Source: Bacillota bacterium
Lineage (GTDB): Bacteria > Bacillota > Sulfobacillia > Sulfobacillales > Sulfobacillaceae
Direction of reading: 5' to 3'
Assembly: GCA_021792935.1 (NCBI GenBank)
Contig: JAJYTS010000001.1
Location: forward strand, 72-64,071
DNA: 64,000 bases
Of the stretch, positions 37,160 through 57,258 are shown piece after piece. The notes under the pieces were generated by a model. The model had not been told where the DNA came from. It made no database searches and saw only the letters and a program-made list of their open reading frames with translations. The position numbers were made by a program, and so were the translations under genes. Every line of letters starts with the position of its first letter. Positions within the stretch are counted from its first letter, which is position 1.

Positions 37160-37305
37160 TCTGACCTAGACCAACAACCCATTGGAAGCTCACAGACGGC
37201 CGGTTATTGTCGGAGTACTGAAGTTCTTCCAAGTAAAGTTGCCGGTCGTTGCGGAAGCCCCCGGATCGGGCACCGCGGGCACTGGCAAGGGGGGGAACAC
37301 TAACA

Positions 37306-38877: not shown

Positions 38878-39502
38878 TGCCATTCAAGTCGGATTAATTG
38901 ACGATCACCCAGTCGTGCGGGAAGGTCTTCGAGTGTTCTTGGAATCAGCTCCCGATATTCGCGTCAGCTTAGACTGCGACGGTGGAGAAACTGCCCTTGA
39001 CGCCTTAAAACACGCAACCTGTGACGTCATTCTGCTGGACTTGGTTCTTCGTCGGGGAATGGACGGCGTCACAACATTCAACCGTATCCGGGAGACGTGG
39101 CCCCACATGGCTATTATTATTTTAACGTCATACCAAGACCCAACTAGTTTAAGCTATCTTCAGAGCCACGGCGCATCCGGCTACTTGGACAAAACCATAA
39201 GTCCAGACGATCTGTTGCAAGCCATTCGCCTGGTGGCACGGGGACACTCCGTCTGGGACCCCACCCCTAAGCTTCCCTCGCCGACTCTCCTAGAGCCACT
39301 CACTAGTAGAGAAACCCACGTTCTACAGTTGCTGGCAGAAGGACTTTCCAACAAAGAAATTGGTTCCCGGCTCGCGATTAGCGAGAAAACGGTGAAGGTG
39401 CACGTGAGCCACATCTTAGGCAAGCTAAATGTCTACGACCGCACTCAGGCCGTCATCAGCGCGCATCAAAGAGGGCTGGTGCACCTTTCCACCAATAGTT
39501 AA
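38870..39502 (+). CDS. NarL/LuxR family response regulator (start codon non-canonical or frameshifted)
   Basis: IQVGLIDDHPVVREG, LLDL, LTSRETHVLQLLAEGLSNKEIG..SEKTVKVHVSHILGKL. Confidence 0.9.
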   Translation: MINAIQVGLIDDHPVVREGLRVFLESAPDIRVSLDCDGGETALDALKHATCDVILLDLVLRRGMDGVTTFNRIRETWPHMAIIILTSYQDPTSLSYLQSHGASGYLDKTISPDDLLQAIRLVARGHSVWDPTPKLPSPTLLEPLTSRETHVLQLLAEGLSNKEIGSRLAISEKTVKVHVSHILGKLNVYDRTQAVISAHQRGLVHLSTNS

Positions 39503-40587
39503 GAACGCGATAGGTTTTTGATGGTCTCCACCAATTCATCAATATAAGGCATGGGGGGGACGGTTATTCGAGCGTATCCCGCCAGTCCAAAAACCTTTGT
39601 AAGCCGCACCACATAGCCGCTGCCGAGCATGGATCGCGAAAACTCGTCATCGTCCCCAAAGATGCGCACCGTGACAAAATTAGCATCGCTGGGATAATAC
39701 GCAATTCCCGCCTCGGTTAGCTGGTTCATAAAATAAGTACGGGCGGCAATGGTCTCCGCAACAACACGCTCAAAATACTCCGTATCCTCCAGCGCTCCCC
39801 TAGCCGCGGCCCACGCCACCGCATTCACGGAAAAAGCGTCTCGCACCTTCCACAACGACGCAATAACGGAAGCGGGCCCTGCTGCCCAACCCACTCTTAG
39901 GGATGCCAAGGCAAACAATTTAGAAAAAGTGCGAACCCATACGACAGGGCGTCCGTTGCGAATCTGGGCGGCGATATCCGGCTGCGTATTCTGGCAAAAC
40001 TCATGATAGGCCGCGTCAACGACAACCAGGACGTGGGATGGCACCCGGCTCCAAAAATCTTCCCATGCGGACGCTGAAAAAGCCGCGCCGGTCGGATTGT
40101 TGGGACTGCACAGATAGATAAGCCGAGTTCGGTTGGTTACTGCTGCCAGGATACCCTCCAGATCGTTTGCCCCGTTGGCATCAAGTGCGACAGGAACCGG
40201 CGTTCCACCCGTTAGCAAGGTACTATGGCGATACGCAGAAAAGCTTGGCGAAGGAAATACCACTTCATCGCCGGAGCGCACGTAGGCCTGGGCAATAAGC
40301 CGCAGAACCTCGTCAGCCCCATTCCCCACCAAAATCTGTGACGATTCGAGTCCATGTCGTCGGCCAATAGCCTCTAACAACTCTGGTTCGCGAACCACCG
40401 GGTAGTAATTTAATTGGGCCAGCACGTTGCTGGCAGCGGCGACTGACTTGGGTGACGGGCCCCAGAGGCTTTCATTGGAGGCCAGTTTTAAAAGCTCTTG
40501 GCGGCCGCTATCGGCGCGGGCCTGACTCAACGGCATCCCCGGTGAATATAGTGTCATTGAAGCAACTTCCGGACGCGGGTCAACCAT
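39499..40587 (-). CDS. hisC: Histidinol-phosphate aminotransferase
   Basis: KLASNE, GNGADE, SPNNPTG, DAAY, RTFSKLFALASLRVG. Confidence 0.88.
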   Translation of the reverse strand: MVDPRPEVASMTLYSPGMPLSQARADSGRQELLKLASNESLWGPSPKSVAAASNVLAQLNYYPVVREPELLEAIGRRHGLESSQILVGNGADEVLRLIAQAYVRSGDEVVFPSPSFSAYRHSTLLTGGTPVPVALDANGANDLEGILAAVTNRTRLIYLCSPNNPTGAAFSASAWEDFWSRVPSHVLVVVDAAYHEFCQNTQPDIAAQIRNGRPVVWVRTFSKLFALASLRVGWAAGPASVIASLWKVRDAFSVNAVAWAAARGALEDTEYFERVVAETIAARTYFMNQLTEAGIAYYPSDANFVTVRIFGDDDEFSRSMLGSGYVVRLTKVFGLAGYARITVPPMPYIDELVETIKNLSRS

Positions 40588-43290: not shown

Positions 43291-43860
43291 CTAGGGACCT
43301 TCACCCGGTATAAAAGAACTGACATAAGTGGCAACGCGCCAGTGTCCATGACTGCGCCGTAGCCAGGCGGTCCCATGCGATCCGTTGACCACCATGCTAA
43401 GCTTCCGAATTTGGGATCTCCGGGGAAGGCCGCTAATATTCGCGAACCACACTTTATCCTGCCAGGTGGCATGAGCCCAGTGACCAATAACGACTACCGA
43501 ATCCACTTTAAGAGAAATGCGTTTAACGATTTGACGTTGATAGGGCCACAATTTCAAGTAAACCTGGAAAATATGATGGTCTCTGGCATTCGCGGAGGAA
43601 TTAGAAGTAAATGTATCCGCAAGCAACCGGTACTCGCTACGCTGAAGTTTCCGTAACTCGGCTGGCGAAGGTTTATGGTCTCGCGGCAAATCCACACCCA
43701 TGAGGTTCAAAGGGCTTTCCAATGCCATCGCACGGGTCAATACGGCACCAACCGGCCGATAGGCGCGGTTCGACGCTGCGGCACCCGCAACGGCAACCCC
43801 TAATACCGTGAAGACAACACTACCAGCTACCCAACGCCATCGAATGGATATCGCCCCCAA
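43291..43860 (-). CDS. Secreted/membrane-anchored hypothetical protein
   Basis: N-terminal signal-like hydrophobic stretch; beta-rich C-terminus (..WLRRSHGHWRVATY) suggestive of an NTF2-like fold. Confidence 0.55.
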   Translation of the reverse strand: MGAISIRWRWVAGSVVFTVLGVAVAGAAASNRAYRPVGAVLTRAMALESPLNLMGVDLPRDHKPSPAELRKLQRSEYRLLADTFTSNSSANARDHHIFQVYLKLWPYQRQIVKRISLKVDSVVVIGHWAHATWQDKVWFANISGLPRRSQIRKLSMVVNGSHGTAWLRRSHGHWRVATYVSSFIPGEGP

Positions 43861-44461
43861 TTTCGTGCCATCACTAACCTAACGACTAAGTGAGGGGCAT
43901 TATACCAAGAGGCGTTTTTAACAAAAAATATAAACAACAGTCACGATTATCCCCCAACGGAAGACAAATAGCTTTGCGTATCTCCCGAAAAAACTTCTAT
44001 GAAACAAATCATAGAACCCCACGAGAGCAGCCATAAAGAGACCGGGAAAATGGGCCGATCAAAAAAATAATGCCGAAGTGCGCCTCAACGACCGATAGCC
44101 CGTCTTGACGCCTATTGCATACCACCAGCACTTGCCGCCGGGCGGCTGCCCTCGTTTCAAAGCGGGCAGTGCTTAAAATGGAGGGCGGGGGCGCGACCAC
44201 CACCACGGGAAGAGCCTCACCATCACGGATCACCATGAGACGGCGCTTTTCGCGACAAGCCTTCCCTTTGCGGCCATGTTGGCAAGAAATATGACACAAC
44301 TTAGTTGCTTAGGACCGAGAGTTAGGTTGGGTGAGCTTGGTGAACCAGATCGCCCGTCAGTAAGGACGCCGCGAGACCGCCATTTTAAATTCCAGTCTCT
44401 TGTCCAAGTTTTAGGTGGCATGATTGCCCAATGTTTCAGTGTTTGGCCTTGATAGATGTCC

Positions 44462-44797
44462 TTAGCGATTGCTTTCATTCGATCCAACAAATCCCACCGT
44501 GATTTGCGAAACGCTCCGTACAAAACTTGGCTGAACGGAATCCGTTTGGGGCACATGAAGGTGGTGCGGAGCGGTATCGACCTCAGCTTGGTCATAATGT
44601 GGAGCATTATTAAAACGATAGCGGTTACTGCCCTGTTGCCAATGATACCTATAACGCCCTGTGCTGCCGTGGAAAACGTCCAGAAAGCTCCCGTCTCGCA
44701 ACTCTAAACGTACGTTACGCTCTTCTTGAATGATGGTTGCCGATAATACGAGATCCGGAAACTGCTTTAAACAAAAAGCGGCAACCTCATTAATCGT
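44462..44797 (-). CDS. DUF6516/TumE-like toxin (start uncertain)
   Basis: DGSFLDV..GRYRYHWQ...RFNNAPHY...TAPHHLH family signature; follows a small antitoxin-like gene. Confidence 0.75.
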   Translation of the reverse strand, partial: TINEVAAFCLKQFPDLVLSATIIQEERNVRLELRDGSFLDVFHGSTGRYRYHWQQGSNRYRFNNAPHYDQAEVDTAPHHLHVPQTDSVQPSFVRSVSQITVGFVGSNESNR

Positions 44798-45086
44798 CTC
44801 GAATTGGCCTCCTGGTGCTGATAATCTGTTGCCACAGTTTGTGACGATACCCTTGTAGTCCTTCGAGTCGGATCGCGTCTTCCCATGCAGGGTGCCCATC
44901 AATTGTCCCATCGCGAATTAACGCCTCAATACCATCTGGCGATTCTGTGCCATATTGTTGGGCGATCACCACGATCCGCTGATCAATCTCAGCAATCTTC
45001 TTGAAAAGCCATGTTTCTAGGGCCTCTTGCAATAAAGTCGATTCCGGTACCCCAAGCTCACGGCTTAACTGGGCTAATGTAGACAT
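44790..45086 (-). CDS. Putative antitoxin (TumA-like)
   Basis: 98 aa, LAQLSRELGVPE...QYG..IRDGTIDGHPAWEDAIRL; GAGGGGTG RBS; overlaps the toxin gene. Confidence 0.7.
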   Translation of the reverse strand: MSTLAQLSRELGVPESTLLQEALETWLFKKIAEIDQRIVVIAQQYGTESPDGIEALIRDGTIDGHPAWEDAIRLEGLQGYRHKLWQQIISTRRPIRDD

Positions 45087-45218
45087 CGCACCCCTCTCTT
45101 ATCTACCCGCAATCTCCTGCCATGTGCTAATTATACTGCCGTACTGATAGAATCACGCTACACCGTCAGCGATAATTGCTGTCAATCTAGAGTATCATTC
45201 TACTGAACCTTCTAATAC

Positions 45219-45510
45219 CTATACCACCCACCGCCGCTTCTTATGGATTCCGCTAACATTGGGCGGGTCTTCTGTCACATAGACAACCCCAACTCGTTCC
45301 AGTCGTTCAAGCCAGCGCCAAGCTTGACCACGGCCAACACCTAAAACTTGAGCAATCAGGCCAGAGGTTACGGGCATCCCGGAGGGCCACTCACGGACGA
45401 CTTGCTGCACGCGAGCCCACGAAACAGGTTCTGACGGGAGTATTAGGAGTCGACTGACGCCATCGCTGCCACAACTGGCGTAGCGTAGTTACTTCAAACT
45501 CAGCCGCCAT
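45219..45510 (-). pseudogene. Frameshifted winged-HTH protein
   Basis: AGGGGA RBS with ATG 45510 (MAAEFEVTTLRQLWQRW..) is in one frame; the HTH (VTSGLIAQVLGVGRGQAWRWLERLERVGVV) is in another. Confidence 0.5.
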
Positions 45511-46533
45511 GATGTCCCCTCCCGTCTGCCTTTCTGACACCATTATAGGGCGTCAGGCCAAGAAGGCCAAAGAAGGTCAGATACTTCGTGACAAGCTCCA
45601 CGTTAAGGATGCGACGTACGACAGTAGCGCTACCCAGCCTGCCGGTTGTCCAGGGTAGACAATGTGCTTATTAGCTTGGCTAATCCTCCAATACCCAGCA
45701 TAGTGATCCATGCACGCATATGCTGCGGCCAAAGGGCCACCGCGCCGAGCAATACTAAGTCACTGGCCATGAACCCCAAAATCCCCTAGGCCATTAGCGC
45801 TGAATCTGTTTGCATATATCCTAGCCGCTGCGACCACCTAACCCCAGCGTCACGAACAGCTAAAAAATTAGGATATCCGTATTTGGTGATTGAAATGGCC
45901 CCGCTACCTCGACATCTCTGGATTTCTTGCGCCTGTTGAAAAGACGCCATCGGGCGTAATGGGGTCGTCACTGGGATCGTGTTGATCTGGACTCGCAACG
46001 GGGTTCTCTCAATCCTCATGGAGCGTGTTGCTTGGTCGTTCGCGTTCGGTACTATCGCCAGGGTCATCGCAATTCCGGCTGGCATGGATTGAATAGCGTA
46101 ACCAGTCCAAATCCATCCCGTGGAATCGCCACGTCTTCGGATGCCTCCACGAATGCAAGGCCGATGTGCATCTGGCTGATTTGCTTTCTGGTAACATGCG
46201 TCATCCGTTGGAACAGCGCTGGAAACCCATCACGTCCCTGTCCTCCAACCAGCAAGTCGTGTCGCGGTTCTTAGGCGATTGATGGTCCGTCCCCACATGG
46301 ACTCTTTCCGATGGCTTCCATCACCGCGCAAAGCGGCGCGATGGCGTGTCTCATCGTGTCCGTACCCTCTGAGTCCTTCCCCAGGATGGCCTACGCCGCA
46401 GAACCGCTTGTCCCCGCGTTTGGGGCCGTTGGATGCGCCTTTTAGACTGGAATTGCCGTTATCGGGGGATTTTGGACCCGCTGGTTACCCTCCCCAATCG
46501 CCCACGTATTCCAGTTGAGAAAGGACGTTCTCG

Positions 46534-46776
46534 ATGGCCCCTATCTCTCGTCTTCGACGGCGCTGGCTTGCCATAGCCGCTGTGGCGCCCTTCGTGGGGA
46601 CAACCCTGCTGGTGCCGGTCTCGTTCGCGCAAGCGGCGACAACGCCCGCCATGACCAGTGCGCCGCCGAAACCGGTCGTCTACACCCCGCCCACACACCT
46701 GAATCGCACGCCCGTCCGGCGAACTGAACCCACAGTGCTAAGCCGCATGACAATGAGTGGCAATACTGCCATATAG
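46534..46776 (+). pseudogene. Truncated secreted precursor (signal peptide plus Pro/Thr linker)
   Basis: AAAGGA RBS; MAPISRLRRRWLAIAAVAPFVGTTLLVPVSFAQAATT...; ends without a mature domain. Confidence 0.5.
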
Positions 46777-46810
46777 CGTTAGCGCCAACACCTTAAAGGA
46801 GGGAGTCATT

Positions 46811-47215
46811 ATGGGAGGACACTATACAGCTACCATCATCATAGGACTGGGACTTATTGCCATAATGGGATTCGCTCAACAGCTGGTAGTGAGCTATCAT
46901 CGCAAGCTGGCACCCGAGGAATATGTTTGGTGGTGGCGTCTTACCCTTGGATTGGAAGCAGTGATCTGGGGAGTCGGGATTTGGCCTGTTGGGCTACTGT
47001 CTCTCATCGTGTGGGTAGGCCTTTATGTTCGTCTGAACGACGAAATGAAGTTTTATCGAGAACATTACCTGCCACACCGTATTGTCGATTTCGGGGTTCC
47101 AGAAGGTCAAACGCCCACCTATAAGCCACTAGCCAAGCCGGTACGTATCTTGTTTGTCATTGGAGTGATAATCGTGCTCAGTTTGGCGTTTCTCAATCTC
47201 TGGATTCACCGTTAA
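46811..47215 (+). CDS. Membrane protein, immunity-like
   Basis: AAGGAGGGAG RBS; 134 aa with 3-4 TM; directly follows the truncated secreted ORF. Confidence 0.7.
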   Translation: MGGHYTATIIIGLGLIAIMGFAQQLVVSYHRKLAPEEYVWWWRLTLGLEAVIWGVGIWPVGLLSLIVWVGLYVRLNDEMKFYREHYLPHRIVDFGVPEGQTPTYKPLAKPVRILFVIGVIIVLSLAFLNLWIHR

Positions 47216-47818
47216 GAAAGATGTCCGCATGCACTATTACAATCCTACAAATCCATCTCGAACAGCACGATTTTCAATTAAGCCTACCCTCCATCATCGG
47301 CAGGGCGACCCTTCTGACGCCTATGATGATTGTTGCGAGCAGGGATGCTTTGCCTATGTGCCGGAACCCTATTTATCGGCAAAGTGGCTACTGAAGAAGG
47401 TGGTCAGACGTATGAATGGGTTCACCATCCAGTGCAGCCCATGAACAGACGCCCGCTAACAACTACGGGACGGAGATATCCTCGTCGATAGATTCCCATC
47501 GCAAAAACTGACCGCCCCCCAAATGATCACGGCTCGCTGGTCAGCAGTAGATGCATGGGCCAGATTGGGTAGGTTTGCCAGTGGATGGCGTAATTCTCCA
47601 TCGTTCGATAGTTGGATAATGAGTTGCTGACGTCGTCGTATTGGCGCTAATTAAATTTGGCATTAGTTTAGCTAAAATGGCTGCCATTTGAGCTGCATGG
47701 ATTGGCTAAAGGCGTTAACAAGTCTGACCATCAAGACCGCGCCTAGTCTAACTCCCCGCCACGATGGGCGGGGTGTCAGGATAAGGCATGATCGACGCAC
47801 TCGACCCGGGGCTTAACT

Positions 47819-48585
47819 ATGACTCGAATTAAGGCAAATCAAAAAGGATTAAAACGGTTAATTGTGGGTGGAGCTATACTGGCAATGCCACTTTTAGGTG
47901 CAACTGCATTTGCACAATCAACAACTGCAACTTTGCCAGCACCTCAGATGGCTCAAGCCGCACAAGTAGCTAGCGAAACTGAAAACATCAATACGACTAA
48001 TGGATATGTTTCGGACAACGCTCAGGTGTTGGCCAGTTTTGGACTATCAGCCAGCCAAATTCAATATGTTGAGAACACGATTCAGACATACGATACAACG
48101 AATGGTCTAACAGCTACTTCTACGAGTCAAACTACCCCTACAAGTGACAGCATTTCTCCAAATGCAGGGATTTGGGTGACTACTGACTTATATTCGGGTC
48201 AGAAGATTATGCTATATGAAGGCGCTCAGCCCGGTATTGGTTGGCAACATATGATGTATCGTCATAATTGGGCAAATCTCGGAACGGCCCAAACAACTGT
48301 AGAAATTGTCTGCCATAACCCGGATAGTTGGACAATCCAGTCCAATGGACGATACGCTTATTACAAATGGTTTGATACAACGGTCCCGTTTGAAAGCTGG
48401 GAAGTTGAATTTTGGTCGTGGTAAATGCGGGCAACGCTAATGGTAATAGTGACACCGGACCTGGTGCCGTTGTAACTGGATATCCAGTGTCTGGCAACTT
48501 TGTAACGGAAACATGGAATGGTGTACCAGATACCTCAATTGTTCCATGGTGGGTTAATGAGGGCCTATATTCACAGAAACTCTGA
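47819..48585 (+). pseudogene. Secreted polymorphic-toxin-like nuclease, frameshifted near 48410
   Basis: Signal peptide (..ATAFA|Q), S/T-rich linker, LYEG...GWQHMMYRH motif; ORF stops at 48424 but the -1 frame continues LVVVN...GAVVTGYP...SQKL* to 48585. Confidence 0.7.
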
Positions 48586-48605
48586 TTTACGTGGCGAGGT
48601 GTAGT

Positions 48606-49052
48606 ATGGACGACAAACTCTTAGAGTCCCAATTCTTAGCATCCCTGTACAGCGCACTAAAGGGAATTTCCCAGAATGGCATCCTCGTTTCGAATGTTCA
48701 AGAGGAGAGTCATTCAGACATTACTCGGTCCGCCTATCGCGTCATTCCCCATAAGTTTGGGTGGCGGTGGATCCTCCGAGGAACTGCGGAGCGGTGGTGG
48801 CTAGAGATTCTGGATGATCGGGCTCCAATGCGTGGGCGCCCGTACTACATCGACCCACATGGTGATGAAGAGTTCTTTGCTTTGGCCGCGGTAAGTGACG
48901 TTACAACGTCAGACCGTATCACCTACTTTGTATCCATGTTACTGACCCATATGGATGAGAAACTGGTGGGCCAGAAAGAAGCTCACCGTGCGTATAGTGA
49001 AGGAGCAACAATCGACAATCCTCCTTGGATTCATACAGATTCCGCAGGCTAA
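48606..49052 (+). CDS. Hypothetical cytoplasmic protein, candidate immunity protein
   Basis: GAGGTG RBS; starts 20 nt after the reconstructed toxin stop; no signal peptide. Confidence 0.65.
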   Translation: MDDKLLESQFLASLYSALKGISQNGILVSNVQEESHSDITRSAYRVIPHKFGWRWILRGTAERWWLEILDDRAPMRGRPYYIDPHGDEEFFALAAVSDVTTSDRITYFVSMLLTHMDEKLVGQKEAHRAYSEGATIDNPPWIHTDSAG

Positions 49053-49068
49053 AAAAGTGTGGGCAACA

Positions 49069-49089
49069 GGGACGAGCACTCCTCGTCCC
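49069..49089 (+). terminator. Hairpin after the candidate immunity gene
   Basis: GGGACGAG-CACTC-CTCGTCCC; weak U-tract. Confidence 0.4.
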
Positions 49090-49394
49090 CCCTATTTGCG
49101 CGGGTATCCTAGCCCCTAACTAGCAATATTTCTAGCAGTCATTCTAAACGTGCCGCATCAATATGCGAAGGTGACTTCGCACAGGATCTCTTATTCTAGC
49201 CTCCCCTCATAACTAGAAACGGAAGCCGAATTGTTGATCACGAATAGTCGCCTCCCATTGCCCAGATCCCAACGGAACTGTTGCCACTGAGATCATCAAT
49301 TTGCTGGGGAAACCTCTATGAGAGTCGTCTGCCTCAGTATGGTTCCCTTTTCGCCCTCATTGACTTTGGAATCAGGCCATTAGCGGATACGAGT

Positions 49395-50027
49395 TTATCG
49401 TATGACCTTTATCCACCCGTGGCCAGCCAATGCCGCCATGGGAGCGATAAATATCCATAAGACATTGAGCAGCAACACCGCCGGGAGAACAGTCATCCAG
49501 AGAGGCCCATGGCGCTTCTTCGCCTCCTCCTGATAGGTTAAGCGCGTTTGCAAATGGCGTACATGCGCCTGGATTTGGGCGGAGGAGATTCCATGGAGAT
49601 AGCCATGCCGCAGCAACAACCATGTTAAGGGCGCATCTGGCCCCAGCGGCCCCAACTCGGGCATGGCGTGGGACCGACGGCTGATGCGCTGCGCCGCCTC
49701 CGATATTGTGGATTTCAACCAGGGCTCTGCCTCCGCGGCAATCTCCACCGCCTGCCAAAAAGTTAGCCCCGCCGTGAGCAGAACCGCTGTTTCCTGCCAA
49801 AACCGCACCAGCGCCGACTGGCGCTCCAAGTCGCTGACCCCCCCGCGCGGCTTGCGGTTCATCGCCAGAAACACGGCGCTAAAAAGTGCGGCCAAAAGCC
49901 ATGGCAGCCTCTCCGCGGTTATTAACGCACCCGGTGCCACACCGATTAGGGCCGTCCAGGCCAGCGATTCACGCTCCCACCACATCAACCATGCCACCGC
50001 GGCACACCAAGCGGCTATCACCATCAT
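49395..50027 (-). CDS. TadC-like (T2SS F family) membrane platform protein
   Basis: VLLTAGLTFWQAVE motif; C-terminal TM LPAVLL...FIAP; follows TadB-like gene. Confidence 0.7.
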   Translation of the reverse strand: MMVIAAWCAAVAWLMWWERESLAWTALIGVAPGALITAERLPWLLAALFSAVFLAMNRKPRGGVSDLERQSALVRFWQETAVLLTAGLTFWQAVEIAAEAEPWLKSTISEAAQRISRRSHAMPELGPLGPDAPLTWLLLRHGYLHGISSAQIQAHVRHLQTRLTYQEEAKKRHGPLWMTVLPAVLLLNVLWIFIAPMAALAGHGWIKVIR

Positions 50028-50728
50028 GGCATCTGCGCCTCCCGCCGAATGTAATAGGCCAACACCGCAAAAACAGCAAAGATGGTAATTCCCACCCCAA
50101 GGATGGTGCCGTCCCCCAGACGGCTGGTGAGCAGTGCTTGATAGAAAGAGGGAACCAAGAGCCGAAATACCGCCAGCACTCCTGCTGGTGCAAATGCCAA
50201 AATTAAAATGGTGGACCGCTGCGTGGCCTCTTCCAATCGGCGCGCTTGCCGGAGCGCGTGTCGATTTTGGATGGCGTCACTTGCCCATTCCGCCACCGGC
50301 AGCAATGATCCGCCGTGGCGACGCACCATCAGCGCAACCTGCGCCAAAAACGAGAGACTCGCCACGCGAAACTGGTTGGCGACGGCCTGCAAGACTTGCT
50401 CCCCGGCGTCGCCTCCCCCCCACTGCGATCTATATCCTAGTTCGTCTAACGCGGCGGCTAAACTCCCTTTCACGCCCAGCATCTGCCGCAGTCGAACCAT
50501 AAATACTAAAGCGGCCTGTTCCGCCTCACCCCGACGCGTTTCCGCTTGGCAGGCATCCCGGTAAAACGCCAGACCCAACCCGATCCAGAGCCCAGACAAC
50601 ATCATCCAGTCATCCTGCATCACCATACCGACCACAAAACCTGTCGCCAGAATCCAGGCGGCCTCTCCTCGCAACCAGACATATACACCCATCCCCACGG
50701 CGGTTGCCTCGACCAAGACCCCCATCAT
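50024..50728 (-). CDS. TadB-like (T2SS F family) membrane platform protein
   Basis: GSLAAALDE, VRRHGGSL, PSFYQALLTSRLG motifs; ATGA-coupled to cpaF. Confidence 0.78.
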   Translation of the reverse strand: MMGVLVEATAVGMGVYVWLRGEAAWILATGFVVGMVMQDDWMMLSGLWIGLGLAFYRDACQAETRRGEAEQAALVFMVRLRQMLGVKGSLAAALDELGYRSQWGGGDAGEQVLQAVANQFRVASLSFLAQVALMVRRHGGSLLPVAEWASDAIQNRHALRQARRLEEATQRSTILILAFAPAGVLAVFRLLVPSFYQALLTSRLGDGTILGVGITIFAVFAVLAYYIRREAQMP

Positions 50729-51912
50729 CCAACGCCATCCCTTTGCAACTCTCCACCATCCCAATGCCAACGCAGATGAAGCGCTTGCGCCCTGACGTCC
50801 ATGACAGTGTCGACCCGGCGGTTCCCCCCCGGTTCTCGCACTAAATAAACGATCACGTCGATGGTGTCCATAATCTGCGCCGTGAGCGACTCAAAGGACA
50901 GTCCCTGAGCCCGCTGCAAGGCCATGCGGGCGAGCCGATGCACGGCCCGCATCCCTCCATCGGCGCAATGTACGGTACAGAGGCTGCCTGGATGGCCACT
51001 ACTCATCGCATCGATAAGGTCAAGCGCCTCTGGCCCGCGCACTTCTCCCACAATTATGCGGTCCGGCCGCATGCGAAGCGCATTGGCCACCAAATCCCGG
51101 ACGGTGAAATGACCAAACGCTTCCAATCTCACGGTGTTAGGATGAGGAACGTTGAGTTCCCGCACATCTTCAATGGTTACCAGACGCTCATCTTGTGCCG
51201 CGCAGCCAACCAACAGCCGCAACAGGGATGTTTTCCCCGAACTGGCGCCGCCCGCGATGATAATATTTTTGCGGGAGCGAACCATAAAGGCCAGATCTTC
51301 CCACAAGTCAGTGCTAATGGAACCGAGGTGAAACCAGTCATCAATCCCCATCAGATTCATGGGGGCACGCCGAATAGTAATGGTGGGAACCTCGCTCACC
51401 GGAGGAAGAACACAATGGATGCGCGAACCATCGCTGAGGCGCGCGTCACATAAGGGAGTCTCCGTATTGAGTTCGCGCCCCGCCCGATTGGCGATGCGGC
51501 GCGCCAGATCCTCCACTTCCTGGCCGTGGTAAAATTCCACGGGGCACGGCTCAATCACTCCGTGCCGCTCAACATAGACATGTTGTCCGTTCACCATAAT
51601 TTCCGTAACGGTATCATCTAAGAGCAAAGGGTCTAAGGGGCCAAGCCCGGTTATCCGATTAATGACCGAACGCCGAAAAAAGGGAAGCAAATGCGACGGG
51701 CAATCGGCGTCGTCGCGCACGACGACATCTAATGCCTCTTCCAATAGCCGTATTCTATCCGCATCCCACACCAGATGGGAAATTCTCTGAGGAAATTCCG
51801 ACTGAAGCCGACCCATCCACCGTGATAACACTGCCTCTCCGTCGGCAACGGCTTCTCCCGCCGCGCCATCCCAAGCGGGAGTCTCTTCCGGGAACCACGC
51901 ATCCCTAGACAT
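50725..51912 (-). CDS. cpaF: CpaF/TadA family pilus assembly ATPase
   Basis: GLGPLDPLLLDDTVTEIMVNG, DARLSDGSR, GGASSGKT, TIEDVREL, ALRMRPDRIIVGEVRGPEA. Confidence 0.93.
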   Translation of the reverse strand: MSRDAWFPEETPAWDGAAGEAVADGEAVLSRWMGRLQSEFPQRISHLVWDADRIRLLEEALDVVVRDDADCPSHLLPFFRRSVINRITGLGPLDPLLLDDTVTEIMVNGQHVYVERHGVIEPCPVEFYHGQEVEDLARRIANRAGRELNTETPLCDARLSDGSRIHCVLPPVSEVPTITIRRAPMNLMGIDDWFHLGSISTDLWEDLAFMVRSRKNIIIAGGASSGKTSLLRLLVGCAAQDERLVTIEDVRELNVPHPNTVRLEAFGHFTVRDLVANALRMRPDRIIVGEVRGPEALDLIDAMSSGHPGSLCTVHCADGGMRAVHRLARMALQRAQGLSFESLTAQIMDTIDVIVYLVREPGGNRRVDTVMDVRAQALHLRWHWDGGELQRDGVG

Positions 51913-51915
51913 TAT

Positions 51916-52875
51916 TTATCCCTTCTTTCTCGGTAAAATGTGAAAACCGCGGCGGCCCGGCGCCGGCGGAAGCGTGGCAGCGGAGGAAAGCGCGACAAAA
52001 CACCATTTGTTGGCTCTGCTACGATCCCTATAGGCCAAGGGCTCCGGGGCGGCGATGAGCCATTGCGCGTCCTGGCGATACAGTCGAATAAACTCTACGG
52101 TTCGCTCCACCAGCCACTCCGGCGTTGCTGCATCGACCCATAGCACAACCCAGGGAATCCGTTGAACCAAATCGACGGTGTAGACATTCATGAGTTCAGG
52201 GCCCAAATACCAGCCCTGCCAGGGCCATTGCTGGCGCACCATCCGCTCTATCCCTCGGGCGTCGGGGAGCACAAGGGCCGGCATCCAAGGTGGTGGAGCC
52301 GGAATTAAAGGGTGCCCCTTAACCATATGAGGGCGGAACTGCTCAAAGCGATACCGACTTTGCCGATGAAGGTCAGGGCACCACTCTAAGCTCAGTTGAG
52401 CGGATTTGAAGTCGAGGTCAACCCATCCGCCCCCCGTTCCATACCTGGCATCGGCCCACTTGGTCAAGAAAGTTACAATAGGGTTGATGGGGCGATAGGG
52501 GAACAGCGAAAATAAGAGCCAACTCTTACCCATGGGCAGCGGCTCCAAAGAACTTTCAGATTGCCACCACTGGCTAAGATGATTCTGGTCAATCTCTCCC
52601 CGCCAAATATCTAAGCCAGGGATAGCGCTTTGAAAGAGCGGGTGTTGAAAATCATGCCCCACCCAGAGTACACAGTGGCGCCCTTCCAAGTCTGTTCTTT
52701 TAAGCCAGTCCAGCGCGTCCGAAAAGCCCTGCAGATTTTGTCCCAACAAAACACGCTCAACCTGGCTCCATCGTGTTAGCACCTCAGCCCAGGACGCCGC
52801 CGAGACCACGTTGGCAGGACTCATCTGCCGGCAATATTGCTCTACACCGGCATGCCCGCTTGCCACTACAATCAT
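51916..52875 (-). CDS. Degenerate CpaE/TadZ-like protein
   Basis: Lies between CpaB and CpaF; residual WVDLDF MinD-like motif; no Walker A. Confidence 0.5.
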   Translation of the reverse strand: MIVVASGHAGVEQYCRQMSPANVVSAASWAEVLTRWSQVERVLLGQNLQGFSDALDWLKRTDLEGRHCVLWVGHDFQHPLFQSAIPGLDIWRGEIDQNHLSQWWQSESSLEPLPMGKSWLLFSLFPYRPINPIVTFLTKWADARYGTGGGWVDLDFKSAQLSLEWCPDLHRQSRYRFEQFRPHMVKGHPLIPAPPPWMPALVLPDARGIERMVRQQWPWQGWYLGPELMNVYTVDLVQRIPWVVLWVDAATPEWLVERTVEFIRLYRQDAQWLIAAPEPLAYRDRSRANKWCFVALSSAATLPPAPGRRGFHILPRKKG

Positions 52876-53423
52876 GACGTCAATCCCACCAATTCGATGG
52901 TGCCACGGCCGCGCAATGCCTCAAAACCTAGCGCCTCATGAATGGGCATGGCCACGTCAATACTGGCGGGAAGCCCCACGCCGCTACTTTTGCTCACAAC
53001 CGGAACAGGCCCCGATTGCCATTTCACCTGCTGGCCGGTTTTCAATAAAATGTCGACCTCGCTGCCCGTCTTCGCCACCGCCTCATCTACGGCGCTAGTA
53101 GGGGCCACAGCTACCAAAACAACGTCTTGGGCATAATGGCCAACATCTTGCGGGCTTATCAATTCCCCGGGAAACAGATCGGTGTTGGCAAATCCCCGTA
53201 GTTGCCGCAAAGATACCCGGTGGAGCCTTTGCTCAGGAATCCAACGGATGTCCTGAGCCCGAATGGGTCCCCCCTTGGCCACGAACGTTTTGACCACCGG
53301 AACAAATATGGATATGGCGGCGGTTTTGGAATGAGCCAAGCTCAAAACGCCAAACACCACAGCGCTAATGGCAAGCGCTACCAGGCCAGCTCGGCGCTGC
53401 AACCGTTCTCGCAAACCCTTCAT
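52872..53423 (-). CDS. SAF-domain CpaB/RcpC-like protein
   Basis: N-terminal TM, VPVVKTFVAKGGPIRAQDI, ANTDLFPGELI, GSEVDIL. Confidence 0.75.
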   Translation of the reverse strand: MKGLRERLQRRAGLVALAISAVVFGVLSLAHSKTAAISIFVPVVKTFVAKGGPIRAQDIRWIPEQRLHRVSLRQLRGFANTDLFPGELISPQDVGHYAQDVVLVAVAPTSAVDEAVAKTGSEVDILLKTGQQVKWQSGPVPVVSKSSGVGLPASIDVAMPIHEALGFEALRGRGTIELVGLTS

Positions 53424-55099
53424 GATTGCCTTCCCCCCTCTCCCACATTCGCCAACAATAATTGCTCACGGCGAGACGCCACAATCCGGATGGGCACATG
53501 ATCGTCACCCAACACCAGAAGCCCTTCCCCTAACCCGGCGGTCTCGATAATGCGCACTTCCCCTTCATGAAGCCGCATTAATTGCGCCACCTCCGCCAGG
53601 CTTTCGGGGTGCTGGCGCAAAAGCAATGTCATAGGAGCATTGCGAAGACATACTTCCGCTGCTCGATTTCTTGTGAAGTCCCCAATGTCTTGCGACAACA
53701 ACGAGATCGCCGTACCCCATTTCCTTGCCCGACGGAACAACTCTTCCAGATAGGCGGCGCTTTCTCCATCGTTAAGCAAATGCCAGGCTTCATCAAAAAT
53801 CAGCAGTCGTCGCACCGCCTCAGACCCCATACGGCGCATGAGCCATTCGGTTAAGGCTAGATAGGCAGGACCCTTCATGGCATCGCTTAAGTGGCTGCAG
53901 TCATACACCTCAAATTGGCCATGATCACGCCGAGAGCCAGTTCCTACTGAGGATCTCCACCTTTGGTACGCGAGCTCTAGGCGTTGACATGCCCGCGGGC
54001 TGTCTACTCCCAACTCCTGCAGCAATTCCGCGATGTCTACCTGGCCAGATTGGTCGGGAATAAAGCGCGACCGATTTCCGCGCAAAATCCGCCAAAGCGC
54101 GTCATGAACCAAGCCGCCGTATTCCGTCATGAGTTCCGGGGATAAGCGTTTCAGGAGACGAAGTAGAAAATCGGCTTGACGGGCACCTTCATCTATGTCT
54201 TGAGACATGGGCAATATAAAAGGATCATAGGGGAACCCGGCCTGGCTTGAATTCCCCCCTCCCAGTTTCCAGACGGTAGCGCCCACGTCTTGCAGCATTG
54301 CATACTCTCCTTCAGGATCTACGATGCTTATAGCCCATCCCCGATAACGGGAACGTAGGGCTTCCAGTTTCGCAGCAAAGCTCTTGCCAGCGCCCGACCA
54401 GCCGATGGTGATAGAATGAGGAGACGCAAGCTGAAACCTATCGGCAACGATGAAGTTGCGACTGATGGGATTAACTCCGAGAACTTGACCTTTGGGATGC
54501 ACCACGTCTTGTGATGAGAAAGGAAACAGCGTCGACCAAGCGCGGCTGTCCATCTCCCGCGTCTTATCACTTGGCTCCCCCAACGGCAGACCGCGTTTGA
54601 GTCCAATTTCCTGCTGATAGCGCAATAAGCGCACTGTCAAAAGCATGCTTTGGGCGAGACTTTCCAACAGCCGGCTGGTATTTTCAAGAGTTTCCAGGTC
54701 GGAGGCCCATAAGGTAATGATGAGCCCCACCTCTATCATGCGGATTTCACCCTTGGCCAGGTCTAGCCGCACTTTTTCGGCATCCTCCAAAGCGACCGCT
54801 CGCTCCGCGCGGCCGACTCGTCCTTGGGCGCGATCAGCGTCCTGCGAACCGCGGTGCCAAATCATACGGCGGCTCATAGTTCGCACCGCCTCCCCACTAT
54901 CCACGGGGGCACTGCGAAAAACCATGGATATGGGCTGCGGAAATCCTAACAGCGGCTCCAGCCACCCCGGCCGTACGTCGCGCGGATACCCCACCACCGT
55001 GTAGCTGCGCGCATATCGCGAACCGACCTCGGCGTAGGTGGGTAGAATCCTTAGATGAGAAGGCCAAACAATGTCAACCGGGTCGGACTTTTTACTCAT
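53420..55099 (-). CDS. virB4: VirB4-like conjugal transfer ATPase
   Basis: GWSGAGKS, IVDPEGEY, LLIFDEAWHLL, LFRRARKWG, SQDIGDF, GEGLL. Confidence 0.9.
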   Translation of the reverse strand: MSKKSDPVDIVWPSHLRILPTYAEVGSRYARSYTVVGYPRDVRPGWLEPLLGFPQPISMVFRSAPVDSGEAVRTMSRRMIWHRGSQDADRAQGRVGRAERAVALEDAEKVRLDLAKGEIRMIEVGLIITLWASDLETLENTSRLLESLAQSMLLTVRLLRYQQEIGLKRGLPLGEPSDKTREMDSRAWSTLFPFSSQDVVHPKGQVLGVNPISRNFIVADRFQLASPHSITIGWSGAGKSFAAKLEALRSRYRGWAISIVDPEGEYAMLQDVGATVWKLGGGNSSQAGFPYDPFILPMSQDIDEGARQADFLLRLLKRLSPELMTEYGGLVHDALWRILRGNRSRFIPDQSGQVDIAELLQELGVDSPRACQRLELAYQRWRSSVGTGSRRDHGQFEVYDCSHLSDAMKGPAYLALTEWLMRRMGSEAVRRLLIFDEAWHLLNDGESAAYLEELFRRARKWGTAISLLSQDIGDFTRNRAAEVCLRNAPMTLLLRQHPESLAEVAQLMRLHEGEVRIIETAGLGEGLLVLGDDHVPIRIVASRREQLLLANVGEGGRQS

Positions 55100-55692
55100 C
55101 GTGACTGCCACACCCAGTTGGTGCCCCGAGGTAAAGTCTGCCCACCGCCCAAACTGGCGTAGAGAAATCGAAAGAGACCATCACGCTCCAGAGTTTTCAC
55201 CCGTATACCCATGGGTTTTAGACTCGCCGCAATAATATCGCGTCGCCGCTCCAATTCCATTTCCGCTTCATCCCACAGCACTTCTCCCCGCCGCAAAGGA
55301 CGTGATCGGGAATCAGACCCCTCCCAAGACAGGATAATGAAAAACCGCCGTCGCACCAGATTCTGTAGATTGGCGGTTTCCTGCAAAAACTCAATGTAAT
55401 CCCCTAGCGAGGGCCTAAGGTGAGGCTCGACATCCTCTTCCCGCAGCTTCAAGTCACCTAAGTACTCATCGATTCGCACGTGATCCGAACGAACCAATAT
55501 CTCCACCGGGAAGCTTAACCCATTTAAGAAAGCGGTATAAGCGGTGACCAACCTTTCCTGGTCTCTGTGCGAACGGAGCCCAAAGTTTACCGGAACCGCC
55601 TCGAACACCGCAGAAAACCGGTCGCGTCCAACCAAGCAAATGCTTGGTCCAATAGCCCGGATCGGAAAAACTTGACTTATGCGTGCAGCCAT
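55096..55692 (-). CDS. VirB4-associated protein (TrsD/PrgI C-terminal-like)
   Basis: PVNFGLRS..DQE....YTAFLNGLSFPVEILVRS, RRFFIIL pattern typical of the gene preceding VirB4 in Gram-positive T4SS. Confidence 0.7.
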   Translation of the reverse strand: MAARISQVFPIRAIGPSICLVGRDRFSAVFEAVPVNFGLRSHRDQERLVTAYTAFLNGLSFPVEILVRSDHVRIDEYLGDLKLREEDVEPHLRPSLGDYIEFLQETANLQNLVRRRFFIILSWEGSDSRSRPLRRGEVLWDEAEMELERRRDIIAASLKPMGIRVKTLERDGLFRFLYASLGGGQTLPRGTNWVWQSR

Positions 55693-55746
55693 TCCCACAC
55701 ACCTCACGTTTCTCAATTAATAAAAGTGGTTGTGTTTAATCCGCTC

Positions 55747-56022
55747 CTAGGGCAGATATAAATGCGGTTTGAGCCGAAACATTACGTAGCGGGCGAACCA
55801 TTCCGGCAGTGTGACGTCTTGAATTCGCGCCGTGGCCAGAAGAATCCCCATCACTGCCAAACTTGCCATTGCCACCAATCGCCCAGTGATTGAAAACTCC
55901 CACCCATGCCACACCGCGACATCGGCCAACCCGGAACCTGCCAGCCAAGGTAGCTGAGACAGCCGCAGGCCAAACAATACCTCTGGTTCCGAGGTTAGCG
56001 GCACATAAATGGTTCGAATCAT
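55747..56022 (-). CDS. PrgI family (VirB3-like) protein
   Basis: EPEVLFGLRLSQL, two TM, TLPEWFARYVMFRLKPHLY. Confidence 0.78.
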   Translation of the reverse strand: MIRTIYVPLTSEPEVLFGLRLSQLPWLAGSGLADVAVWHGWEFSITGRLVAMASLAVMGILLATARIQDVTLPEWFARYVMFRLKPHLYLP

Positions 56023-56813
56023 CTCCATAATCTATTCCCCCCTGCCGCAATACCCACTAGCCGCCGCAACTGCCCCGGAAGTTTGGTCATGTACCATAAC
56101 AACGCTAATTCCATCAAGACTCCAGCCATTCCCCATTGATGGCCAGATGACATAAGATGCACCGCCAGCCAAAATGCGCCAGCATGAAAAGACTGAATAA
56201 AAATCACGACGCCTAGTTCCCGCGCGATGTTTGTCAGAGCTGAATCATTGTCCTGCGCGGCCCACCATAAGGCGAACCAGGGAATAGCCGCTGTCAACAA
56301 GAAAATCTCAATGGTTCGCACCGCGTAAAAAAGTCCAAGATAAAGCATGAGAAGCAACATGGCGCTGCCTACCAACAAAACCACCAGAGGAGAGAGCGCG
56401 CCACCCGTGGCGGGCAAACCGGGTGTCCAATTTAAAGCCTCCTGCAAAAGAGATAAGACCACACCGTTGTTAATATCTAAAGCCGCTTTCACCAGCCATA
56501 GCCCCGTTAAGCTGATAAAGCCCGCCGTAACCAGCCGCTCTAAATACAAGGGAGCCGACATGCGCCGCCAAGACCAGCTAAGCTGCGGCCACATGCTTTT
56601 TAGGGATACGCTTACCATGATCACCACCACCAAACTCCCGGCCAAATCACGGCTTAGATTATAAAAATGAGTCACGATCGACGGCCAACTTAGCGGGTGA
56701 AGCACGGTTGACGACATCCAACTCCCGGACAAGTCCACCACTTGCCGCCACATCCAACCAGATATCGCGTCAACCGCCTCCACGACGGGGTCAATATGCA
56801 AAATGGTGCTCAT
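56019..56813 (-). CDS. VirB6/TrbL-like polytopic membrane protein
   Basis: ALDINN, YAVRTIEIFLLTAAIP, VIFIQSFHA, MTKLPGQL. Confidence 0.78.
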   Translation of the reverse strand: MSTILHIDPVVEAVDAISGWMWRQVVDLSGSWMSSTVLHPLSWPSIVTHFYNLSRDLAGSLVVVIMVSVSLKSMWPQLSWSWRRMSAPLYLERLVTAGFISLTGLWLVKAALDINNGVVLSLLQEALNWTPGLPATGGALSPLVVLLVGSAMLLLMLYLGLFYAVRTIEIFLLTAAIPWFALWWAAQDNDSALTNIARELGVVIFIQSFHAGAFWLAVHLMSSGHQWGMAGVLMELALLWYMTKLPGQLRRLVGIAAGGNRLWR

Positions 56814-57043
56814 GAAACGACGTACTGAATTAGCTGCCTTAACATATCCACCATGAGAACTAGCCCCAACCCCATTGCCGCCCGGGCCATCAACTCTTTA
56901 CTACTCTGCACCGCGCGGGAATTATGCGATAGCATAAAGCGAATAGCGCCATAGACCATCACTAAGGTAAAAATTCCACCAGCCAGATCGACCAATATGC
57001 CTGTCAATCGGGTAATGGCCGAAACCAGTGACGCATCAGGCAT
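56810..57043 (-). CDS. VirB2/TrbC-like T4SS pilin
   Basis: 77 aa, two hydrophobic helices with YGAIRFMLS...SSKELMARAAMGLGLV loop; GGAGGG RBS; no type IV prepilin G|FxxxE site. Confidence 0.72.
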   Translation of the reverse strand: MPDASLVSAITRLTGILVDLAGGIFTLVMVYGAIRFMLSHNSRAVQSSKELMARAAMGLGLVLMVDMLRQLIQYVVS

Positions 57044-57058
57044 GGTAGTCCCTCCAAC

Positions 57059-57090
57059 AAAAAAAGGTCGGTGAGGTTGTCCTCACCGAC
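57059..57090 (-). terminator. Intrinsic terminator immediately upstream of the pilin RBS
   Basis: Perfect 10-bp stem GTCGGTGAGG-ACAA-CCTCACCGAC, then C and T7, ending 3 nt before GGAGGG. Confidence 0.8.
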
Positions 57091-57130
57091 AATATTGCGA
57101 CGTCTCGACCGTGAATTCCCTGTCAAAATT

Positions 57131-57220
57131 TTCGACGAAGATCGACAATTCCACCAAACTAGACGGCGGTAGATTTCACGCCGCGCTTCAATCTCAGGGA
57201 TAAGTCGACGGTTATCGACA
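57131..57220 (-). promoter_or_regulatory. Two tandem Spo0A-box-like pairs
   Basis: TGTCGAT-aac-CGTCGAC (57220-57204) and TGTCGAT-ctt-CGTCGAA (57147-57131) versus the 0A consensus TGNCGAA. Confidence 0.5.
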
Positions 57221-57258
57221 TTTTTACATAAATCATCCATTTTTCCGACAGTGCGTCC

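Follow-up and report, generated by a model that had tools for sequence, protein, structure and literature searches.

Domesticated type IV secretion systems (T4SSs) are present in Helicobacter (ComB, which is not known to include a coupling protein) and in Neisseria. In archaea the Ced and Ted systems are chromosomal sets of VirB2, VirB6 and VirB4, and the Ted loci also carry a MinD/ParA-like gene (PMC9905601). Patescibacteria possess chromosomal T4SSs of the MPF-FATA type which mostly have no relaxase and are thought to have been co-opted for other roles (PMC12102498). Here we analyzed a ten-gene operon which joins T4SS genes to Tad-type pilus-assembly genes and lies on the minus strand at 49395-57043 of a DNA stretch of 64,000 nucleotides (the window; positions 72 to 64,071 of contig JAJYTS010000001.1, GenBank assembly GCA_021792935.1). 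The window belongs to contig C91 of a metagenome-assembled genome of the Sulfobacillales, which are acid-loving mineral oxidisers; this genome (G000) comprises 2.02 Mb in 141 contigs and is ~60% complete. Our analysis makes it very probable that the operon is a fixed, selected and conjugation-derived hybrid of a T4SS and a Tad system. We found no paper on an order-wide fixed T4SS in cultivable Bacillota or on one with a permanent Tad-type motor, and a T4SS review of December 2025 mentions neither Tad nor CpaF.

The operon resembles Ced and Ted in its VirB2-like pilin, VirB6-like channel and VirB4 and in being chromosomal, lineage-wide and conjugation-derived. For Ced and Ted, however, the descriptions mention neither a motor of CpaF, TadB and TadC nor an RcpC-like protein nor a type IV coupling protein (T4CP); all three are present in the Sulfobacillales. 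With the T4SSs of Patescibacteria the operon shares the monoderm type, the VirB2-like pilin and the chromosomal fixation, whereas the Patescibacteria systems have a VirB4 of another clade (~27% identity) and no Tad-like module has been reported for them. A metagenome contig (L051 8290-13303) with PrgI, TraC-like and VirB4 genes directly beside dnaN-dnaA matches the origin-proximal type of Patescibacteria.

The tra region of the pAW63/pXO2 family of Bacillus plasmids contains VirB4, VirD4 and a VirB11/CpaF-like ATPase (PMC1196294), and in pAW63 the VirB11-like gene is followed by two genes of ~250-280 amino acids (aa). Likewise the operon has VirB4 and a VirB11/CpaF-like ATPase and then two further genes; the pAW63 region, however, is plasmid-borne, and no VirB2-like pilin, CpaB-like or CpaE-like genes have been described there. 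In the host lineage itself, the genome paper on Sulfobacillus thermotolerans attributes to pL15/pY0017 a conjugation backbone whose proteins are related in part to those of T4SSs and in part to those of type II secretion systems; it contains MinD-like, CpaF-like and TadB/TadC-like genes together with a relaxase, TraG and VirB4, and strain Kr1 has this backbone on its integrated plasmid (PMC6803676). On the 248-kb second replicon of another relative (G023) a single array encodes VirB4 (690 aa), a MinD-like protein (469 aa), CpaF (443 aa) and two proteins of 305 aa, and TraG is located ~10 kb from it. The operon unites the same VirB4, MinD-like, CpaF-like and TadB/TadC-like proteins in the same host lineage, and the uniqueness of the hybrid which had been implied in an earlier note on this DNA, made from the letters alone, cannot be maintained, as Sulfobacillus plasmids carry this combination together with TraG. 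Unlike the operon, the plasmid backbone is mobile and has TraG, a relaxase, a primase and a lytic transglycosylase nearby; the identity between the chromosomal and plasmid versions is just 25% for VirB4 and 34% for CpaF, and the chromosomal operon is fixed at one site. Since this combination also occurs in mobile form, we prefer to see in the operon a conjugation module that was captured and fixed and that already contained Tad-like parts.

In a genome from another family of the phylum (G060) the series TrsD-VirB4-CpaF occurs. The next-nearest VirB4 clades outside the order show 27-29% identity and come from systems of two sorts. The first are conjugative elements with pilin, TrbL, PrgI, VirB4 and Replic_Relax genes, one of these elements having in addition a TraC-like gene, TraG and an integrase; the second is the dnaA-adjoining cluster of PrgI, TraC-like and VirB4 genes mentioned above.

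Organization of the operon

The ten genes (Table 1) are intact, in one orientation, mostly overlapping and free of internal stop codons, just as the earlier note had described them. ATGA-type start/stop overlaps are found at five junctions, among them pilin/VirB6, VirB4/CpaB, CpaB/CpaE and CpaF/TadB. All ten gene names of that note stand on the strength of family matches, profile alignments (hhalign) and folds; the PrgI gene had to be corrected, since it is not the longest open reading frame (ORF), and so, probably, does the start of TadB (Table 1). The 104-aa ORF at 55736-56050 was rejected because its frame is not conserved, whereas the overlapping 93-aa frame is conserved in the relatives. 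A 78-aa ORF at 57004-57240 is not conserved either and was also rejected as a gene.

Table 1. Genes of the T4SS-Tad operon and its upstream region in the window, in the direction of transcription
Feature	Position	Strand	Remarks
Conserved upstream control region (function inferred)	57067..57147	-	repeats, TTGACA-like box, hairpin
VirB2-like T4SS pilin	56810..57043	-	77 aa, two hydrophobic helices, no obvious leader
VirB6/TrbL-like polytopic membrane protein	56019..56813	-	264 aa; start overlaps pilin stop (ATGA)
PrgI/VirB3-like small membrane protein	55747..56028	-	93 aa; PF12666, E 1.7e-4
TrsD/TraC-like protein, detached N-terminal domain of VirB4	55096..55716	-	probable start ATG 55692
VirB4 ATPase, C-terminal two thirds	53420..55111	-	563 aa
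CpaB/RcpC-like protein, N-terminal membrane helix then beta domains	52872..53423	-	183 aa; ATGA overlap with VirB4
CpaE/TadZ-like protein, receiver-like and MinD/ParA-like domains	51916..52875	-	319 aa; Walker A lost
CpaF/TadA (VirB11-superfamily) hexameric secretion ATPase	50725..51912	-	395 aa
TadB-like platform protein, single T2SSF domain	50024..50728	-	probable start ATG 50728, ATGA over CpaF stop
TadC-like platform protein	49395..50027	-	210 aa

On the T4SS side the pilin matched PF18895 in all 15 of 15 orthologs (best E 3.6e-11), and TrbL_4 was matched by 17 of the 24 VirB6 orthologs (best E 6.4e-8). VirB4 is split into two genes, a TrsD-like N-domain and the ATPase. The TrsD-like protein weakly matches both the TrsD family and the CD1110 VirB4 model (at positions 15-163), and the ATPase belongs to the CD1110 family (E 1.6e-60), with P-loop_TraG and AAA_10 matching as well. 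Walker A (GWSGAGKS) and Walker B (LLIFDE) are both intact in VirB4, as they are in CpaF (GGASSGKT and DRIIVGEVRG), so that the earlier statement that both ATPases had kept these motifs is borne out. As judged from sequence, the set of pilin, VirB6, PrgI and VirB4 fits a monoderm, MPF-FATA-like T4SS, whose gene order is shared by conjugative elements outside the order.

Chromosomal fixation and selection

VirB4 orthologs were surveyed in 24 genomes of the family, in 8 and 1 genomes of two sister families and in 7 genomes from other orders of the class. The close relatives include Sulfobacillus acidophilus, S. thermosulfidooxidans DSM 9293, S. thermotolerans, S. harzensis and Candidatus Hydrogenisulfobacillus filiaventi (G026); G012 is a complete relative genome and G039 stems from another order of the class. 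An ortholog is present in 23 of the 24 family genomes and in 8/8 and 1/1 genomes of the sister families, and absent from all seven genomes of the other orders, one of which shows a weak match only (E 6e-12). As the relatives become more distant, the identity of VirB4 drops smoothly from 66% to 38%. Among 250 sampled genomes of the phylum outside the order, the TrsD profile gave only weak and patchy matches. A tblastn search for plasmid VirB4 yielded exclusively matches with <30% identity, the best annotated of which, from Pontibacillus, is without Tad-like genes.

In the window the operon is flanked in order by thioesterase, permease, rlmD, gatB and gatA, confirming the setting which had been described as next to a thioesterase near gat and rlmD. 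The same neighbors are found in all fetched loci with sufficient flank, including the contig (L075) on which one of the weakest full-length matches to the CpaE-like protein is encoded. Of 13 bipartitions, 8 are common to a tree of pilin, VirB6 and TrsD and one of gatB, rlmD and thioesterase, the conflicts lying at weakly supported nodes, and pairwise distances of operon and flank correlate with a Mantel r of 0.93, a value reached in none of 2000 permutations. The ratio of nonsynonymous to synonymous substitution rates (dN/dS) is 0.02-0.21 across the nine measurable operon genes, the Tad-like ones included, as calculated from the sole fully usable pair (L024-L026), most other pairs being saturated at synonymous sites. 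The TrsD-like gene (52-81% identity, dN/dS 0.02) ranks with the best conserved ones in the operon.

Could the operon nevertheless be the decaying remnant of an integrative conjugative element or plasmid? The nearest outside VirB4s do reside on conjugative elements, and local decay is seen in the relatives. In G026 the thioesterase and the T4SS-Tad array are duplicated in tandem (L013 2900-10000; L013 15700-20000 together with L014 1-2800), with pilin, TrsD and VirB4 frameshifted in one copy and the other copy intact; G004 has one in-frame TAG within its VirB4 ortholog (G004:C107:19594-21258, L004); and in G012 a group II intron (reverse transcriptase/maturase, L011 6413-7726) follows the CpaE-like gene, behind which CpaF, TadB and TadC are inverted. 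A remnant is, however, at odds with the presence of the operon at one site throughout the order and with the low dN/dS values. Moreover, we find no signs of a mobile element: no integrase is encoded by the flanking ORFs scanned, the window contains no tRNA, no att site was noted and the distribution is not patchy. We therefore regard a remnant, and likewise the mere neighborhood of a T4SS fragment and a Tad pilus which is considered below, as very improbable. Both proposals of the earlier note on this point, namely that the two halves form one conserved unit and that the machine is domesticated, are upheld by the chromosomal synteny beside thioesterase and gatBA, the congruence with the flank tree and the absence of relaxed selection.

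The Tad-like genes and the separate canonical Tad locus

CpaF is readily recognized by sequence (T2SSE 1e-41, TIGR03819 8.5e-75, VirB11 2.4e-63). The TadB-like protein aligns with the canonical TadB of the same genome (hhalign 95.6%, E 1e-8) and the TadC-like protein with the TadB-like profile (hhalign 87.5%, E 3.6e-6), the latter having in addition weak T2SSF and PilC matches; its direct hhalign comparison with the canonical TadC was not significant. None of the CpaB-, CpaE-, TadB- and TadC-like alignments had a significant match in a profile search of PDB sequences, nor were hhalign comparisons of the CpaB- and CpaE-like profiles with single canonical Tad proteins significant, and the CpaE-like protein has no Pfam match. 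As there was no usable sequence signal, the CpaB- and CpaE-like proteins were identified by their fold, using AlphaFold2 (AF2) models built from ortholog alignments. For the CpaB-like model (predicted local distance difference test, pLDDT, 88) Foldseek ranks RcpC from the Tad alignment complex first (9GZR, E 6.8e-6), four orders of magnitude ahead of any other match. For the CpaE-like model (pLDDT 84.8) the top structural match is 3FKQ (E 5.6e-4), the TadZ structure from Eubacterium rectale, followed by MinD, Soj and FlhG. The assignment of the two modeled proteins to RcpC and TadZ holds at the fold level only. With its Walker A motif missing, the CpaE-like protein is degenerate as had been stated before. 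A predicted complex of VirB4 and the CpaE-like protein scored 0.24, a value below the mark from which nothing follows about binding.

Elsewhere in G000, contig C32 (L048 7283-12408) carries a full canonical Tad locus with CpaB, CpaE, CpaF, TadB and TadC followed by DUF192 and small ORFs. Its RcpC/CpaB has 252 aa, its CpaE, of the Walker-A type, 409 aa and its CpaF 451 aa. A Flp-like gene (C32:20484-20591) lies just upstream of it, Flp matches adjoin the canonical locus also in G012, G023 and G026, and in G012 a prepilin peptidase match lies ~4 kb from the canonical CpaF. The operon has the same five types of assembly proteins in the same order as this canonical Tad/Flp type IVc pilus. The operon versions, however, are shortened and diverged paralogs (CpaF 37-43% identical), have no Flp of their own and are joined to T4SS genes. 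Neither here nor in any relative does the operon contain a Flp pilin, pseudopilins or a TadV prepilin peptidase, whereas the canonical locus has Flp beside it (G000), a prepilin peptidase (G012), a Walker-A CpaE and longer TadB and TadC.

These findings bear on the possibility that two unrelated systems have merely come to lie side by side, for which the mobility of the CpaF-TadB-TadC trio would speak. In the relatives the seven genes from pilin to the CpaE-like gene always stay together, and the trio is detached in four cases, namely G023, G018, G012 and the L075 contig; it lies 24 kb away in S. thermosulfidooxidans, on a separate contig in G018 and at a non-adjacent place on the L075 contig. 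Even where it has moved, the trio is retained at 50-56% identity. Against a chance neighborhood stand the ATGA overlaps which link VirB4 to CpaB and CpaB to CpaE, the relation of the Tad-like genes to a separate full Tad locus with its own Flp in G000 and its own peptidase in G012, and the CpaE-like family, which exists only in this kind of locus and counts just 52 representatives among 1.84 billion proteins. Since the unlinked flp (G000) and tadV (G012) adjoin the complete canonical Tad locus, they do not show that two conventional systems are merely adjacent.

An unlinked locus with VirD4-like and Replic_Relax-like genes

The ten operon genes and the scanned flanking ORFs of the window have no match to relaxase, VirD4 or integrase families. 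Family scans of relatives whose only VirB4 is the conserved one revealed, however, a partner locus. It encodes a VirD4-like protein of ~490-510 aa with N-terminal transmembrane segments and intact GPTGSGKS and FLYIDEF motifs (PF02534 1e-13, TrwB_AAD_bind, CD1115 family 1.4e-10), followed by a Replic_Relax-like gene (PF13814; 4.5e-7 in G012, 3.5e-12 in G039). The invariant residues of the Replic_Relax-like protein form a PD...ExD.G.E...K pattern, from which we infer a putative relation to the PD-(D/E)xK nucleases, for which it is typical. The claim that DNA-processing genes are missing accordingly holds within the window and is not supported for the system as a whole, as the relatives keep these conserved genes at an unlinked site.

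In the family the pair is fixed between a gene of the phosphoglucomutase/phosphomannomutase family (PGM) and minC, and in the sister families it adjoins PGM. Counted by family it occurs in 21/24, 8/8 and 1/1 genomes, amounting to 30 of the 33 other genomes of the order. G013 has neither the pair nor VirB4, and in G004 (91% complete) the VirD4-like gene was not found. A VirD4-like coupling protein is also absent from the window and from the assembled ~60% of G000; as PGM and minC are missing there too and contig C93 stops just short of the site, we attribute this to an assembly gap and not to a loss. In G039 the VirD4-like and Replic_Relax genes are immediately preceded by genes of the SbcC and SbcD type (L061 8965-14375), an arrangement which recalls the Rad50/HerA genes beside archaeal Ted loci.

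Possible function of the operon

We consider it rather likely that the operon stems from a monoderm conjugative T4SS which already had a Tad-like motor, that it has been domesticated and is inherited vertically, and that it probably serves DNA transfer. The chances that its function is DNA transfer between cells of the lineage appear close to balanced, or slightly lower. In such a machine pilin, VirB6, PrgI/VirB3 and the split VirB4 would make up the channel through the membrane and, probably, a short filament of the VirB2 type, and CpaF on the TadB/TadC platform would act as a second motor. The RcpC-like protein could provide a wall-spanning conduit and, together with the catalytically dead TadZ-like protein as organiser, an alignment complex, and these Tad-like motor and alignment parts would replace the VirB7-11 parts which are absent in monoderms. 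The membrane-anchored VirD4-like coupling ATPase and the Replic_Relax-like protein of the PD-(D/E)xK type would process and feed the DNA substrate. More tentatively, and with a probability clearly below that of DNA transfer as such, the system may be an order-wide apparatus for mating which moves chromosomal DNA. Its three parts would then be the T4SS with a VirB2 pilus, the second motor derived from Tad and the coupling ATPase encoded at the unlinked site, a PD-(D/E)xK nuclease taking the role of the classical relaxase. Such an apparatus would be the bacterial equivalent of Ced and Ted, found in acidophiles that can be cultured, and would belong to a larger class of chromosomal T4SS-Tad hybrids of monoderms which has not been described.

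That the coupling protein has been retained would favor export, as by a donor, over import. This bears on the proposal of a Ced-like machine made in the earlier note, of which the chromosomal and lineage-wide VirB2/VirB6/VirB4 set stands and the strict analogy to an importer free of a T4CP is weakened by the conserved T4CP. A domesticated T4SS of the Ced/ComB kind which takes up DNA would agree with the vertically inherited VirB2/VirB6/VirB4 set on the chromosome, as in Ced and Ted, with the MinD/ParA-like gene, which Ted loci also carry (PMC9905601), and with the lack of a relaxase and a T4CP in the window. The stated components of Ced and Ted do not, however, include a coupling protein (PMC9905601), yet an intact one is conserved across the order, and the operon shows no sequence similarity to CedB past a generic P-loop (E 3e-4). 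DNA import therefore seems quite improbable to us.

Adhesion, contact or protein secretion is a serious rival to DNA transfer. Here the operon would serve adhesion, biofilms or contact between cells by way of a surface filament, or would secrete proteins and not DNA, and the VirD4-like protein would serve proteins or be unrelated. This would be in keeping with a pilin whose gene ranks with the best conserved and most strongly constrained ones (52-87% identity across the order, dN/dS 0.04), with RcpC-like, TadZ-like, CpaF and TadB/C proteins being parts for pilus assembly, with the lack of a canonical relaxase in the PF03432 scan of G012 and with the mostly relaxase-free Patescibacteria T4SSs thought to be co-opted (PMC12102498). 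The coupling ATPase and the nuclease-like Replic_Relax gene are, however, fixed in nearly the same genomes as the operon, the pair is adjoined in G039 by SbcC/SbcD-like genes for the processing of DNA ends, and with the canonical Tad locus and its Flp the genome already owns a system for adhesion. All in all we judge a filament or secretion function to be unlikely, though less so than DNA import.

Several observations weigh against the operon being a DNA transfer machine with the VirD4-like pair as its partner. Because the trio can be detached, a physical coupling of the T4SS and Tad-like halves is only putative. CpaF of the operon is slightly closer to the canonical Tad CpaF than to the plasmid CpaF, which concerns the origin of the Tad half. 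A VirB1-like hydrolase and a VirB8/TcpC-like protein are absent from the operon, and a PF03432 relaxase is absent from G000 and the complete G012, other MOB families not having been scanned. What ties the operon to the VirD4-like/Replic_Relax-like pair is only their common phyletic pattern and type of ancestry, a putative link at the level of sequence; because nearly all genomes of the order have both, this co-occurrence discriminates little. In G000 itself the pair, its locus being unassembled, is assumed to be present. The motif of the pilin promoter, described below, is not found upstream of the other scanned VirD4 or detached CpaF loci apart from a single copy in G003, and the available RNA contigs may stem from DNA carry-over and give neither transcript ends nor expression levels.

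As Sulfobacillus is cultivable and used in bioleaching, direct tests of the proposed DNA transfer are possible. Accessible in this way are the role of CpaF/TadB/TadC-like modules in Gram-positive conjugation, the possible formation of VirB2 pili by monoderms and the part which an exchange of chromosomal DNA may have in shaping these populations.

Upstream region and surroundings of the operon

Upstream of the pilin gene a block of repeats, box and hairpin is shared by the whole genus and by part of the family. Its conserved elements are two direct repeats of GTCGAA with a spacing of ~11 nucleotides (nt), two boxes (TTGACA/TAGACA and TACCAT-like) and a hairpin, GGTGAGG/CCTCACC, to which a T-run is attached. 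In the window the direct repeats are TGTCGAT (57147-57141) and GTCGAA (57136-57131), followed by the TTGACA-like box at 57126-57121 and a terminator-like, GC-rich hairpin of 10 bp with a T-run (57090-57067), located ~12 nt before the ribosome-binding site of the pilin gene. No Rfam family is found anywhere in the window, the pilin leader included. The 17-nt core motif of this region occurs once in the 2.02-Mb assembly. A copy with two mismatches (GTCGAAAATTGCGACAA) lies in G003 just upstream of the VirD4-like gene (L057 9017-9033); a regulon joining the pilin promoter with the VirD4 and detached CpaF loci is unsupported by this lone copy. In S. thermosulfidooxidans the operon is covered by contigs from RNA libraries (RNA-seq assemblies) of four studies.

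The region between TadC and the housekeeping genes (43291-49394 of the window) is poor in genes and has a lower GC content (47-52% versus ~56%). It contains a TumE-toxin-like ORF at 44462-44911, and several other ORFs there have no family match. In G005 the aminotransferase gene, whose counterpart in the window is located at 39499-40587, comes straight after TadC; the ~9 kb between the two genes in the window therefore look inserted or variable. Some 10 kb from the operon, at 37249-39502, there is a GAF-domain histidine kinase gene of the HisKA_3 type, followed by a 195-aa ORF which possibly encodes a response regulator.

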